DNA from: a virus | IMG/VR virus record: IMGVR_UViG_3300019487_000022 | Coordinates: 25,241 to 89,240 of that record | DNA: 64,000 nt | Direction: 5' to 3' (one strand) | Shown: in pieces, positions 20,027 to 25,890 of the stretch | How positions within the stretch are numbered: the first letter of the stretch is position 1 | Layout: each line of letters begins with the position of its first letter | The notes under the pieces: generated by a model | What the model saw: the letters and a program-made list of their open reading frames with translations, nothing else | Told to the model about the DNA's origin: nothing | Databases searched by the model: none | Position numbers and translations under genes: made by a program

Positions 20027-22486
20027 TTGACTGTTCAACCTTATACATACATAGAACCCGATGGAACCCTTCGCAATTACTTATATACAGCTCATTCTGC
20101 GAAAGAAGAAAAAGGTATATCTAAACAATACTATGCAAAACATATCGTAGGACCAATTAGCCAAATAGAAAAAAAACTTTTGCTTTATAAAAATGTTATT
20201 CCAAATGATGTTTTTGAGTTTTTACATTTTATTACAATAAATGCATTTTTATATCATGATTTAGGGAAGTTAGACGACCAGGCTCAACAAGTTTTAAATA
20301 AAAAAAATAATGATAAAATGCTAAATCATGTTGATGCCGGAGTAGCTTATCTGATCAAATTAGCAGAAAATTCGGATAACATTCCTAATAGGAATGGATA
20401 TTTATATGCAGCCTATATTGTCCATGCTCATCATATTGGGCTTATGGATTTTGAAGAAGTTTTTTCGTTAATTAATGGCTTGGATCTTAAACCTAAAAAG
20501 AAGATACGTGATGAAAAAGATCTTAATATTTATAATTTAGGTATTGGAACCGTTAAAAATAGAATAGATAGTACATTAAATAACATAATCCAAAAGCACG
20601 AACACGATTTAAAAGATCACTATATTAACACACCATTACAATGTCCAGATATATCTCCTAATGCTACAATTCTCAGAATGGCACTTTCTATCTTGGTGGA
20701 TGCAGATCATTTTGATACATCTACACATTATCATCCAGAAATATCATTTATAACAAGACCATTACGTATCGATGAACGTATAAAAAAATTAAAAACGTAT
20801 GTTAATAAGATATATAAAAATTCATTGAGAAAACAAAATAATCACAAACGTATTAACTTAAGAAACAAACTTTTTAACATTTGTTGTAATATTAAAACTG
20901 ATAAAGATTTTTATTGTTTTGATGCGCCTGTAGGAAGTGGTAAAACTGTAGATACAGAAATCCTTGCTTTAAGAATTTGTAAAGAGCAAAACAAATATGG
21001 TATTATTCATATTGCGCCATTTCAAAATCTAGTTAGCCAACTAGCTAGTGTTTATCGTAAAACCTTAGTTCTACCAGATGAAAAAGTGGTTATTCATGAT
21101 ATTGTTAACGAAGTACATTCCTCTATGGAATATTCAGACATTCATTATCGACATCTTTCGAGATTGTATTATACTCCTTTTACTATCTTAACTGCGGTAG
21201 AAGCATTAGAATCTCTAACAACAAATAGACCGTCCAGAAGTAAAAAATTAAACCATTTTATTAATAAAGTAATTATCTTAGATGAATTTCATCTTGTGCC
21301 TTATCATCTGTGGCCTTTACTTTTTAGAAATTTACAAAATTTAGTTAGAAACTTTGGATGTAAAATTATATTTTCTTCTGGATCTTTTGTCCAATTCTGG
21401 AATATTCCAGAACTTTTTGATTTGGATGAAAGAAATAGTATATCAACATTTAAAATTTATGATGTTGCTATGGAACATCCAAAAATTTATCAACAAATGC
21501 AAAAGGAAGAAAGAAATCGTTGCAAAGTAAGATATTTAAAAGACGCTTTTCAAAGTGCTAAACAATTTAGTAATCATTTATTTCTTAAACATAATGAAAA
21601 GAATCAAAGTGTATTAATTATACTTGACACAATTGCTAACGCAAGATCAGTTTATAAACATCTTATTGATTTAGTTGGAGAAACCAATGTAATATATCTG
21701 ACTAACTCTCTTACTCCAATTCATCGTCGTCCTATTTTAAAAAGAGTGCGAAATAAATTAAAACATAAACAAAAAACGTGGTATTTTGTGGCTACGTCGT
21801 GTATCGAATCAGGTATAGATATCTCGTTTGATGTAGGATATAAGGAATTAACTTCTAGTTTTAGTGTTATCCAAGCAAAAGGGCGAGTTGCTAGACATGC
21901 TGAAAAAGAGGGGATTTTTTATGTAATGAATTTTACTCACAAAGCAGAAGAAATTACTCATAATCCGGTACATTTTAAAGCGCGTCGGGTAGCATTTGAA
22001 GAAATCATTAAGAATTTAAATTCTAAAAAAGAATGTAAATTCGATATGAATCCAAAGAAATCAACATATTATGCACAAAGAGAAATTCAATCTGATTCTG
22101 AAATATCAAAAAACGCAAGATTTCTTCTTGAAAATGAAAGAAAGAAAAATTTTTCCACTGTAAAATATTTCTCCAGACTTATTCACGATTTTACGTATGA
22201 TGTGTTAGTTGATAAAGAACTTGAAAAAAAGATTGAAAATGGAGAGTATATTCACGCTGCTAGACTAAGCAAATATTGTTTTCAAGTCTCTATCTCCAGG
22301 TTTGAAAAAATGAAGAGATTAGGACTTGTAAAAGAACTTAGTATTCCTAATGAGAAAGACACTACTGTTGATAATGAAGATTTAGACAACGATAGAGAAA
22401 AAATTTATTCTTATACAGGCTTGTATTCAAAAAAAATGGGTTTCGCTGCAGAAGACAAAATCTTTACCAAAGAGGATTGCAAATGA
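20027..22486 (+). CDS. cas3: Cas3, HD nuclease fused to SF2 helicase
   Basis: HD domain YHDLGK, HVDAG, HAHHIG, LVDADHFD. Helicase motifs DAPVGSGKT, ILDEFH, VATSCIESGIDISFD and IQAKGRVARH. GGAG RBS 6 nt before the TTG start. Confidence 0.9.
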   Translation: MTVQPYTYIEPDGTLRNYLYTAHSAKEEKGISKQYYAKHIVGPISQIEKKLLLYKNVIPNDVFEFLHFITINAFLYHDLGKLDDQAQQVLNKKNNDKMLNHVDAGVAYLIKLAENSDNIPNRNGYLYAAYIVHAHHIGLMDFEEVFSLINGLDLKPKKKIRDEKDLNIYNLGIGTVKNRIDSTLNNIIQKHEHDLKDHYINTPLQCPDISPNATILRMALSILVDADHFDTSTHYHPEISFITRPLRIDERIKKLKTYVNKIYKNSLRKQNNHKRINLRNKLFNICCNIKTDKDFYCFDAPVGSGKTVDTEILALRICKEQNKYGIIHIAPFQNLVSQLASVYRKTLVLPDEKVVIHDIVNEVHSSMEYSDIHYRHLSRLYYTPFTILTAVEALESLTTNRPSRSKKLNHFINKVIILDEFHLVPYHLWPLLFRNLQNLVRNFGCKIIFSSGSFVQFWNIPELFDLDERNSISTFKIYDVAMEHPKIYQQMQKEERNRCKVRYLKDAFQSAKQFSNHLFLKHNEKNQSVLIILDTIANARSVYKHLIDLVGETNVIYLTNSLTPIHRRPILKRVRNKLKHKQKTWYFVATSCIESGIDISFDVGYKELTSSFSVIQAKGRVARHAEKEGIFYVMNFTHKAEEITHNPVHFKARRVAFEEIIKNLNSKKECKFDMNPKKSTYYAQREIQSDSEISKNARFLLENERKKNFSTVKYFSRLIHDFTYDVLVDKELEKKIENGEYIHAARLSKYCFQVSISRFEKMKRLGLVKELSIPNEKDTTVDNEDLDNDREKIYSYTGLYSKKMGFAAEDKIFTKEDCK

Positions 22487-25400: not shown

Positions 25401-25890
25401 TAATAAACGGCATTTTTATTGCCGTAAACAAGATAAGACTGTTTTATTAGATTGTGACAAAAAAGCTTCTGAAAATATACTTCTAGCATTTGTTACACAA
25501 TCTCTCCTGTTAAATCATCTTAAAGTCTTAATAACAGAGGATGGAAAAACAGCGGTTATTGACTTAAGTGAAAGAACGACTGAACCGCAAAAAATAAGGT
25601 CCAAAATTTGGACTAACTCAGATGTGCAAAAAATTATCTTCTGTAAACAAGAGAATGGTTCTTATGTATTAAAGAAAGGTAGTACAGACATTAAAGAAAA
25701 AATGCATAAGGCTGTCTTGCATAGGCATGGTTCACTGTGGTATGATTATTTAAATCATAAAAATATGATTGAAGATATTAAAAATCTTCATCTTTCCAAC
25801 TGCTCTTTGACAACTAGCACGAACTCTGATGTGATTAATTCACACTCTGGATCCTCTCGATCTCTTGATAAGACAAAGACTTATGCTTAA
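22483..25890 (+). CDS. cas12: Type V CRISPR effector (Cas12 family, Cas12h-like C-terminus), ~1135 aa, RuvC triad intact
   Basis: RuvC-I ILMGVDFG (codon 24280), RuvC-II IVVVEKL (25201), RuvC-III LLDCDKKASENIL (25456). ATG 22483 overlaps the cas3 TGA, with AGAGGA RBS upstream. Array begins 97 nt after the stop. Subtype is from recollection only. Confidence 0.85.
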   Translation: MNNYDNYLSDYLAMLPHTKRTEIKKTASKISRKLNQKEVKKQIERSEYIRSNCGYINIERPQKSLSFLSYSTIKSACMSVNFRAFQNPINDYETAICNGINECERFFYQQIDSIYMSQIIEQLFDFYIASRQHDMFINNTVVPYDVNKLKSYYTANEKYSFEQFCDDIKEFTNKGFTSGGVSCILNLFYKGSVKDSKNKKDYIKSVKRLETNGLFKKLNIFEKNGISKYFAASTLSTFFATISSWKKQNDDWTGVAKDGTSLLSKLENKTITLQSIIKHHRVINELAVLIVKAYKDPVKTLNNLFEERSDNNNDFKYTCSDDEDKYPMYIKREIAEFVKKHKTVWEEIRYFDESDTKKKKRDKKESSSDDKSYLCCGDSWDYLKTWVRLYGEYYFFDNALNQFLRKPSASMHLYTSLDWINKKTICIVGANYYKIGKVEVVERNNQRFLLVYVSVPEMENYIIIPLQLNKYFGNFQCKIFEGRLQAIFKRYANFNALKNNKPQPSPNISVRINEFHFALRSYRKQQISAEDFSKGRFSLISKIGFQMTNDEVFGRTPREIALVKDHLSKGYVHFGSQIIEDSRKEVEQVLKKPMILMGVDFGYSPLASYNIKPLQTGKPATDWVKNLHGNFLCQNVSLGETITEGEIGDVPTDTYTSSNEIYSIATLTFRNADGKLENRSFSRFYHELNNTLNIIEQIKGTFNFIHSINTQFKEIKALKTTEEFSSYVSTLTWDQFIEDSRKTARYSKYWIHIINENPKRRTIATLNETLKLVDEKHRFTVTIQEIFDLVKYCQQHGYYPKSNVMSKLRNLAIKLINDLIRYQKIGIHSCYLDFCVLIKNHIALLNSSTAFIINFSRNKENIIRNNTSKIHSLWVYRDNFRRQMIKNLCSQILKIAAKNKVHIVVVEKLNNMRTNNRNNEDKNNMIDLLATGQFRKQLSDQAKWYGIAVVDTAEYNTSKVDFMTGEYGYRDENNKRHFYCRKQDKTVLLDCDKKASENILLAFVTQSLLLNHLKVLITEDGKTAVIDLSERTTEPQKIRSKIWTNSDVQKIIFCKQENGSYVLKKGSTDIKEKMHKAVLHRHGSLWYDYLNHKNMIEDIKNLHLSNCSLTTSTNSDVINSHSGSSRSLDKTKTYA

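Follow-up and report, generated by a model that had tools for sequence, protein, structure and literature searches.

The cas3-cas12-array locus of a cave phage

The phage that carries the locus is uncultivated, very large and of cave origin (record IMGVR_UViG_3300019487_000022, 123.8 kb), and the locus is present in a single run, of cave metagenome DNA; the window referred to below is the whole 64,000-nucleotide stretch of this record that was analysed. On the + strand a cas3 gene is followed by a gene for a Cas12-like effector and then by a CRISPR array (Table 1). Both open reading frames are unbroken (819 and 1137 codons respectively, the database form of the Cas12 protein starting from the second of two possible starts), and the ATG of cas12 overlaps the TGA stop codon of cas3 as ATGA (22483-22486), an arrangement by which the two genes are predicted to be translationally coupled. 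Genes for Cas1, Cas2 or Cas4 were not found anywhere in the 123.8-kb record, Cas5, Cas7 and Cas8 genes are absent from the locus, and no other Cascade genes are evident there, as the five adjoining ORFs that were scanned (which take in the gene that precedes cas3 and others past the array) match no Pfam family. The layout is that of a Cas12-Cas3 hybrid, with cas12 beside a type I-C-like cas3 and an array, and not that of a type I-C system.

Table 1. Position of genes, protein motifs and array features (window coordinates; residues are those of the Cas12 protein)
Feature	Position	Strand	Remarks
cas3	20027..22486	+	HD nuclease and SF2 helicase, type I-C-like; 819 aa, TTG start
cas12-like effector gene	22483..25890	+	1135 aa from ATG; 1137 aa from TTG at 22477 (ORF 22477-25890)
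N-terminal extension, residues 1-101	22477..22779	+	mostly absent from relatives
KKKKRDKKESSSDDK loop, residues 359-373	23551..23595	+	REC lobe, charged, probably disordered
RuvC-I catalytic Asp D602	24280..24282	+	motif GVDFG; invariant in 30/30 family members and 11/11 Cas3-linked
RuvC-I to RuvC-II region	24283..25200	+	helical REC2-type insertion; 307 residues, the family's longest
RuvC-II catalytic Glu E909	25201..25203	+	motif VVEKL; invariant in 30/30
RuvC-III catalytic Asp D994	25456..25458	+	motif LLDCDKKASEN; Asp in 27/30 and 11/11 Cas3-linked
Leader	25891..25987	+	A+T-rich, 97 nt, between cas12 and array
Perfect inverted repeat, 18 bp	25942-25986		within leader, abuts repeat 1
CRISPR array	25988..26813	+	12 repeats of 36 nt (GTTGTAATGCATTACGTTAAAGTAATGTTATGCAAC), 11 spacers of 35-38 nt
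Terminator-like hairpin and T-run	27009..27031	+	about 200 nt after last repeat; weak, from a consensus scan alone

The array begins 97 nt past the cas12 stop codon. Its repeats are identical in 11 of 12 cases and the last carries 3 mismatches; because this degenerate repeat sits at the far end of the array, the leader was placed on the cas12 side. The repeat is predicted to fold as a hairpin (-12.3 kcal/mol, z -3.7), and its 36-nt length, with a terminal stem and an inner hairpin, is common to the arrays found beside relatives of this Cas12. A search for a tracrRNA (18-nt windows with up to 3 mismatches, positions 19000-28700) gave no anti-repeat. Allowing up to 8 substitutions, no spacer has a second match within the window or the full 123.8-kb record. 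Spacers 1 and 8 were also compared with IMG/VR by the first 24 nt of each, and neither has an exact match there.

The Cas3 protein is of type I-C kind, as it matches the PADLOC Cas3c profile (E 4.5e-84) and the NCBIfam models cas3_core (2e-27) and cas3_HD (5e-11), and its AF2 model (pLDDT 80.4, pTM 0.85) has the type I-C Cas3 8zns as its best fold match in the PDB (E 6.6e-25). It has the HD motifs, SF2 motifs I, II and VI and the C-terminal domain of such proteins, with the HD residues H23, H77, D78, H101, H135, H136, D227 and H228 and the helicase residues K306, D419, E420, Q616, R620 and R623 all kept. It is about 30% identical to the Cas3 proteins of canonical I-C operons (Cas5c-Cas8c-Cas7 Cascade with Cas3; PDB 8zns, 8g9u), and its nearest cellular relatives include many from type I-C systems of Planctomycetota. 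The locus differs from type I-C in having a single Cas12 in place of Cascade.

The phage Cas12 and its placement among type V effectors

The Cas12 has the split RuvC domain of type V effectors, with a D...E...D triad that lines up with the motifs of Cas12o1 (the last residue, D994, with DxNAA when aligned to the PDB entry), and it has the bilobed Cas12 fold (WED, REC, RuvC and TNB/Nuc domains) in a model of moderate quality (pLDDT 66.7). The strings picked out by the first-pass annotation (GEYGYRDENNKRHFY, LLDCDKKASENIL, LHRHGSLW, YLNHKNMIEDIKNL and KKKKRDKKESSSDDK) are all present in the translation, and the long region that it saw between RuvC-I and RuvC-II is indeed long, at 307 residues compared to a median of 230 (range 196-247) in 29 relatives. 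In the model this region is helical across residues 682-900, with low confidence at 725-784. The stretch before RuvC-I is likewise extended (602 residues compared to a family median of 499), so that the extra 200 or so residues divide into 103 before RuvC-I and 77 between RuvC-I and RuvC-II. The N-terminal extension consists of two helices (2-38), the first WED strand (45-53) and a low-confidence insertion (56-101, pLDDT under 50), and the model aligns to solved Cas12 chains from residue 43 onward only. In the loop of the REC lobe, pLDDT is under 50 for residues 353-379, and residues 360-367 are inserted, having no counterpart in at least 80% of relatives.

It had been suggested that this extra sequence could hold a surface on which Cas3 docks. 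The segments unique to the phage Cas12 (6-40, 53-101, 360-405, 627-672, 714-791 and the C-terminal tail) are mostly predicted to be disordered (pLDDT under 50), and ten Cas12 proteins of 865-1052 aa which do not have them still adjoin cas3. It is therefore unlikely that Cas3 docks on the insertions, and any surface for Cas3 common to the family would lie in the shared core. A comparison of Cas3-linked Cas12 proteins with the Cas12o1-like branch brought out as lineage-specific segments two short, noisy stretches only.

The resemblance of the C-terminus to Cas12h, also proposed from the sequence, was borne out, since the best PADLOC profile is Cas12h (E 1.2e-15, residues 876-1108), and the length of about 870 aa that had been given for Cas12h1 is correct (870 aa). 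The protein is nevertheless not a Cas12h orthologue, a candidate that was rejected because the C-terminus alone matches: the profile match covers positions 612-824 of 838, the protein has 1135 aa compared to 870, and in a PDB sequence search Cas12h1 was matched at E 0.01 only, over 87 residues. By sequence the nearest solved relative is Cas12o1 (E 1.2e-11, residues 833-1106), but the phage Cas12 is not a Cas12o1-like protein either; a true member of that group, P0007, scores 1.5e-97 against Cas12o1 over its full length, and in the tree the phage Cas12 sits on a long branch outside the group holding P0007 and pairs with P0004, the long branches making its exact placement unsure. P0004 is its closest relative of any kind, with 22-30% identity over about 60% of the length. 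Structural alignment to solved Cas12 proteins, a check proposed at the outset, gave 13-16% identity, with Cas12h1 as a tied best match, and Foldseek gave E 6e-25 for Cas12o1/X compared to 9e-6 for Cas12m2 (rank 30). The PDB sequence search, taken to E 10, did not return Cas12m, and the protein, at 1135 aa and with its canonical triad, falls outside the Cas12m type of effector (about 600-750 aa, with a non-canonical RuvC). A word-index protein search returned the phage Cas12 itself alone, scans of IMG/VR with the Cas12 protein, the Cas3 or an alignment of the RuvC region gave no relatives, and the GenBank phage collection had no match. No characterised Cas12 is thus near to it, supporting, as far as sequence can show, the earlier proposal that it may define a distinct subtype.

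Cas12o1 (PDB 8xca, 8wru, 8zqb, 8zqh; also deposited as Cas12-2, Cas12j19 and Cas12X; Duan et al. 2025 Cell Res, cited in PMC13717751 and PMC12721324) is described in the two citing papers as relying on a crRNA whose repeat is 36 nt long, with no requirement for a tracrRNA. The phage system shares with it the 36-nt repeats without sign of a tracrRNA, the intact RuvC and an aligned TNB region free of CxxC zinc-finger motifs. They differ in length (908 aa compared to 1135-1137 aa), in having 15% identity in the structural alignment and no detectable sequence similarity before residue ~830 of the phage Cas12, in their branches of the tree, and in the cas3 beside the phage Cas12, as none is next door at three sampled Cas12o1-like loci. 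Subtype V-O of the 2025 classification is described as probably non-cleaving, and its letter "o" may not match Cas12o1 (PMC12669027). Cas12h1 (type V-H; PDB 8y9l, 8y9n, 9l12) represents the family whose profile scores best in the 2023 PADLOC Cas set, through a C-terminal stretch of 230 residues. It too lacks an adaptation module and is suspected to stem from phages (PMC11830025), but its direct sequence similarity is marginal and no Cas3 partner has been described for it. It is mainly a non-target-strand nickase (PMC11830025), an activity that would lend itself to passing the target on to Cas3.

Recurrence and co-diversification of the Cas3-Cas12 pair

The pairing is not confined to the phage locus, as cas3 adjoins a Cas12 homologue at ten more loci (L010, L011, L012, L018, L021, L022, L024, L030, L067 and beside P0072), and arrays with 36-nt repeats lie beside L011, L019, L022, L030 and L067. 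No Cascade families were found at the relative loci that were annotated (L010, L011, L012, L018 and L021). In the Cas3 tree the proteins linked to Cas12 group together in a single clade, found only with Cas12 and separated with 100/100 support from 46 Cas3 proteins of type I-C, and the Cas12 tree shows matching groupings. Conversely, none of the loci with an ordinary I-C-type Cas3 (73 metagenomic and 80 genomic) has a Cas12 neighbour. The tabulated HD and helicase residues are kept in all 13 members of the Cas3 clade, bar H23R in one and DExH/DExD variation. A degenerate type I-C system was considered as an identity for the locus and rejected, there being no Cascade genes and the Cas3 clade being exclusive to Cas12. 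The branches of the phage Cas12 and Cas3 are very long (1.85 and 2.12 substitutions per site respectively), which leaves some room for relaxed selection on both. No Cas3-Cas12 fusion was seen among proteins of 1435-4095 aa, a negative that carries little weight.

A class 1-2 hybrid of this kind is not a new idea, as Altae-Tran et al. (2023, Science; PMC10910872) named a putative "Cas12-Cas3" system, rare and from metagenomes, in which Cas12m-like effectors that co-purified with crRNA lie, as here, beside a type I-C-like Cas3 and an array with no Cascade. The phage lineage, with its larger Cas12 and canonical RuvC, appears to differ from that description, the 2023 proteins having about 686-743 aa by gene coordinates compared to 865-1137 aa here, and the fold of the phage protein being much nearer to Cas12o1, Cas12h and Cas12b than to Cas12m2. 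None of the contigs listed in 2023 was among the 80 metagenome loci examined, and compared by description and gene coordinates the 2023 loci may be of the same lineage as the phage locus or may have acquired Cas3 on a separate occasion.

A proposed division of labour between Cas12 and Cas3

Taken together, these observations suggest that the phage Cas12 is the effector of a phage-borne type V system which works with a dedicated Cas3, a reading to which we give a probability of about 0.68. The 12-repeat array would be transcribed from the leader on the cas12 side, and Cas12 would bind the resulting hairpin-bearing crRNAs, with their 36-nt repeats, without a tracrRNA, locate PAM-flanked DNA and open an R-loop, its RuvC site cutting at least the displaced non-target strand. 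The co-translated Cas3, an HD nuclease and 3'-to-5' helicase probably derived from type I-C, would then be loaded on the exposed or nicked strand and would degrade the target over long distances, with Cas12 taking the role that Cascade has in type I systems. The R-loops of type I (I-C included) and type V systems share their geometry, with the PAM 5' on the non-target strand; given this and nicking of the Cas12h1 type, a RuvC nick would therefore leave a free 3' end on which a 3'-to-5' helicase could load. Within this scheme, crRNA processing, a physical contact that recruits Cas3, the sequence in which nicking and loading occur, and the targets are what we infer, and conservation of the pair suggests that Cas3 is needed. 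The phage has no spacer-acquisition genes of its own, and the system would probably be used against competing mobile elements or host DNA. The more specific proposition, that Cas12 is a single-protein substitute for Cascade whose R-loop or RuvC nick specifically licenses its co-evolved Cas3 for long-range degradation, could in our judgement go either way with even odds.

With its RuvC intact, the Cas12 might instead suffice alone as Cas12o1 does, acting as a self-sufficient double-stranded DNA nuclease, and Cas3 would then be an accessory which is not recruited by it but enters at the cut ends and chews up the broken DNA, or feeds fragments to the host's adaptation machinery. The triad is intact in every Cas3-linked member, Cas12o1 itself is described as an RNA-guided DNA endonuclease for genome editing (PMC13717751) and its branch seems to manage without Cas3, and at one locus (L090) a Cas3 of the linked clade adjoins Cas1-Cas2. 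However, a helicase that acts freely in processing DNA ends should not follow a single effector lineage as closely as this Cas3 clade does, which has diversified in step with Cas12 and is found only with it, and the likely translational coupling at the phage locus also argues against it, so we consider a self-sufficient Cas12 unlikely.

It is distinctly improbable that the Cas12 is purely a binder or crRNA processor, with its RuvC used for pre-crRNA maturation or silent on DNA and the Cas3 HD domain left to destroy the target. Such a logic was proposed for the 2023 Cas12-Cas3 loci (PMC10910872), the Cas3 HD site is strictly conserved and Cas12h1 hardly cuts the target strand (PMC11830025), but the canonical D/E/D triad has been kept across deep divergence, unlike the site of Cas12m2 (PMC10442227), and the fold is far nearer to those of the nucleases Cas12o1, Cas12h and Cas12b. 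We give very little credence to the locus being a decaying, non-functional remnant, or to the phage Cas3 serving a type I-C Cascade of the host. The long branches of both proteins, the missing adaptation genes, the spacers for which no target was found (in the window, in the record or, for spacers 1 and 8, in IMG/VR) and the many Planctomycetota type I-C proteins among the nearest cellular Cas3 relatives would fit such an origin, but both long reading frames are uninterrupted with every catalytic residue kept, the array has held 11 of its 12 repeats identical and the same pair recurs at ten other loci.

That the gene pair recurs and co-evolves in phage-like DNA points to a naturally occurring hybrid weapon of class 1 and class 2. 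The two genes are conserved together and diversify together on contigs of phage-like character, and the best cellular matches lack the pair, which suggests that phages maintain it as a weapon against other mobile elements. Until now, having one component recognise the target and another degrade it processively has counted as a hallmark of class 1, and if Cas12 does hand its target to Cas3, this division of labour would have been rebuilt on a class 2 scaffold, blurring the class 1/class 2 boundary of CRISPR-Cas classification. Cas3-linked Cas12 proteins borne by phages would then constitute a distinct, mechanistically new type V subtype, a hybrid going back to a single, ancient acquisition of Cas3 from type I-C, of which the phage protein would be the largest and most divergent known member. 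Programmable long-range deletions currently need a Cascade of four to six proteins, and one guide-binding protein with Cas3 might offer a more compact tool for them. Within its family the phage Cas12 is an extreme, showing how much the protein can change while its RuvC core and its partnership with Cas3 are kept.

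Features at the Cas3-Cas12 locus and on related contigs
Feature	Coordinates	Strand	Description
cas3	window 20027-22486	+	819 aa, immediately upstream of cas12
cas12 open frame	window 22477-25890	+	1137 codons from TTG; 1135 from ATG at 22483 (form on record)
Leader inverted repeat	window 25942-25986		18 bp, perfect
CRISPR array	window 25988-26813		12 repeats of 36 nt, 11 spacers of 35-38 nt
ORF with Cas12-family match	G000:C1:22195-23388 (phage record)	-	398 codons, ~1.9 kb ahead of window start
Cas3-Cas1-Cas2-array locus	L090:927-5053		28-nt repeats
Vault-protein gene	L018:2022-4529		835 aa
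Spacer duplication	L067:11717-11860		within a 19-repeat array
Tandem repeats	L024:8247-8588		~14 copies of an 18-nt unit

A divergent Cas12 that retains its nuclease site

All of the peptide strings quoted in the first-pass annotation were present in the translation, including the KKKKRDKKESSSDDK loop (residues 359-373). Pfam and NCBIfam matches to the protein did not extend beyond the TnpB/Cas12 core at the C-terminus (Cas12f1-like_TNB, 1.1e-6; guided_TnpB, 6.7e-15). In a family alignment of 30 sequences D602 (GVDFG) and E909 (VVEKL) were invariant and D994 (LLDCDKKASEN) was Asp in 27. The protein is a genuine Cas12, though a highly divergent one, and its nuclease site is intact. Searched exhaustively with phmmer, a set of 1.84 billion representative proteins yielded 85 matches, nearly all confined to residues ~830-1110, with only the protein itself scoring below 1e-30 (best other match 4.2e-20). 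The nearest relative, the 952-aa homologue P0004, shared 22-30% identity across ~60% of the length.

The C-terminus had been likened to that of Cas12h, which was a fair lead given the rankings obtained from the PDB, PADLOC and Foldseek searches, but Cas12o1 proved nearer in sequence. The best PDB sequence match (E 1.2e-11) was to the protein named Cas12o1 in the title of 8xca, with Cas12h1 reaching only 0.01, whereas among the PADLOC 2023 profiles, which lack a Cas12o model, Cas12h was best (1.2e-15, residues 876-1108). An AlphaFold2 model built from the 30-sequence alignment (pLDDT 66.7, pTM 0.66) was ranked by Foldseek closest to Cas12X/Cas12o1 (6e-25), then Cas12h1 (2e-19) and Cas12b (2e-15), with Cas12i, Cas12g and Cas12m2 (9e-6 for the last) far lower. 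The protein belongs in the Cas12o/h/b corner of type V, outside every characterised subtype. Cas12o1 has been described as an RNA-guided DNA endonuclease of 908 aa that has an ATG PAM, uses a crRNA with a 36-nt repeat and needs no tracrRNA (PMC13717751, PMC12721324), and Cas12h1 is mainly a nickase of the non-target strand (PMC11830025). This solved protein goes by five names in PDB titles and the literature (Cas12-2, CasJ19, Cas12j19, Cas12X and Cas12o1). It is used as a nuclease, whereas subtype "V-O" is described in the 2025 classification as probably non-cleaving (PMC12669027), and the two uses of the letter "o" may not have the same meaning.

The long region between RuvC-I and RuvC-II remarked upon in the first-pass annotation was borne out, at 307 residues compared to a median of 230 and a maximum of 247 in 29 relatives. 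Against the same relatives there were 602 residues ahead of RuvC-I (median 499), 85 between RuvC-II and RuvC-III (median 84) and 143 after RuvC-III (median 122). Insert mapping on the family alignment placed segments found in this protein alone at 6-40, 53-101, 360-405, 627-672 and 714-791 and in parts of the tail, most of them modelled at pLDDT <50. The suggestion that this extra sequence might hold a Cas3-docking surface found no support: relatives of 865-1052 aa without the unique insertions still have Cas3, and so the insertions are unlikely to be the family's docking surface.

Cas3, the CRISPR array and a possible hybrid mechanism

The TGA stop of cas3 overlaps the cas12 start codon (ATGA). 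Its product matched the type I-C Cas3c profile at 4.5e-84, and a model of it (pLDDT 80.4, pTM 0.85) best matched type I-C Cas3 structures (8zns at 6.6e-25). Motifs I, II and VI of the helicase are retained, as are the HD-nuclease residues. The array begins 97 bases past cas12; 11 of its 12 repeats are identical, and since the sole degenerate copy is the one most distant from cas12, the leader sits on the cas12 side. The repeat forms a stable hairpin, and no anti-repeat was found near the locus. The leader inverted repeat occupies the second half of the leader, stopping 1 nt short of repeat 1; it has no T-run and may serve as a binding site for a protein or form an RNA hairpin. The 123,806-base IMG/VR virus record to which the window belongs contains a single array, a single Cas3 and a single large Cas12, with no Cas1, Cas2 or Cas4, and no Pfam families were matched in the flanking ORFs.

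The evidence best fits a hybrid interference module of Cas12 and Cas3. The R-loop has the same polarity in type I and type V systems, the PAM lying 5' on the non-target strand, and a 3'-to-5' helicase needs a free 3' end, such as a RuvC nick would leave. Cas12-crRNA would recognise the target and open an R-loop, RuvC would cut at least the displaced strand, and Cas3 would be loaded at that cut strand to unwind and degrade the DNA processively; we infer the physical recruitment of Cas3 and the sequence of steps, as well as the PAM and the targets. The module is of value for a prediction open to testing: Cas3 would be licensed by a class 2 effector.

The hybrid idea is already published, and the module here is a further variant. 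Altae-Tran et al. (2023) reported "Cas12-Cas3" as a putative class 1-2 hybrid of Cas12m and a type I-C-like Cas3 at seven loci, their evidence being co-purification of Cas12 with crRNA and nothing beyond (PMC10910872). Their Cas12 genes encode ~686-743 residues compared to 865-1137 in the present family, and the two sets may be one lineage or two; the fold here is like that of Cas12o1/h/b, with a canonical RuvC triad, and unlike that of Cas12m2. Neither the class 2 section nor any main-text mention of Cas3 in the 2025 classification update refers to the association (PMC12669027).

Recurrence and co-diversification of the pair

Following both proteins into public assemblies showed a Cas3 gene adjoining a Cas12 homologue at loci L010, L011, L012, L018/L019, L021, L022, L024, L030 and L067 and beside the homologue P0072, mostly in the order cas3-cas12 (two divergent, one cas12-cas3). 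Arrays with 36-nt repeats adjoin L011, L019, L022, L030 and L067, and their repeats have a common terminal stem and inner hairpin with compensatory changes. The D/E/D triad is kept in all 11 linked Cas12 proteins, and the tabulated HD and helicase residues in all 13 Cas3 proteins of the linked group, except for H23R in one member and DExH/DExD variation. The module recurs, co-evolves and is carried mostly by phage-like DNA.

A maximum-likelihood tree split the 13 group Cas3 proteins from 46 type I-C Cas3 with 100/100 support. Scores of a linked-Cas3 profile on 80 metagenomic Cas3 loci were bimodal (six at ~790-905, L078 at 666, the other 73 at 485-593); no low-scoring locus had a Cas12 beside it, and each high-scoring locus long enough to hold a neighbour adjoined one, except L090. 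There a linked-clade Cas3 precedes Cas1 (Pfam 3.7e-20), a type I-E-style Cas2 (7.8e-11) and an array. The 5.1-kb contig has no Cas12; the gene may lie outside it, or else linkage to Cas12 is not universal in the clade. The best 80 Cas3 relatives in 185,579 species genomes included neither group members nor any with a Cas12 neighbour; Planctomycetota (Pirellulaceae and relatives) are the source of many of the cellular type I-C proteins closest to the phage Cas3 (L102-L181), which is not host evidence.

Matching groups were recovered in the Cas12 and Cas3 trees (L010/L018; L011/L021; L022/L024/L030; L012 apart), both window proteins lying on isolated long branches, and no Cas3 was present at three sampled loci of the Cas12o1-like branch (P0007, P0066, P0018). 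From these unrooted trees, the simplest reading would be that this Cas12 lineage acquired a type I-C Cas3 once and that the two then diversified together.

Phage setting and neighbouring features

The locus is surrounded by genes for a portal protein, large terminase, prohead-protease fusion, capsid-like protein and ribonucleotide reductase, and its source is therefore a very large phage; the record (34% G+C) is ~26% complete by CheckV, and a copy of the Cas12 also lies on a 184,772-base contig. The sole public run with the locus is a cave metagenome.

At L067, two consecutive repeat-spacer units of the array by the pair carry an identical spacer. The tandem repeats at the divergent L024 locus, ~2.9 kb downstream of cas3, are not a CRISPR array. 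Just upstream of the L018 pair, on a phage-like contig, is a gene with major-vault-protein domains (Vault_3, MVP_shoulder). The 398-codon ORF on the phage record matched a Cas12-family profile (E 4e-8); it probably encodes a TnpB-like protein and stands apart from the CRISPR locus.
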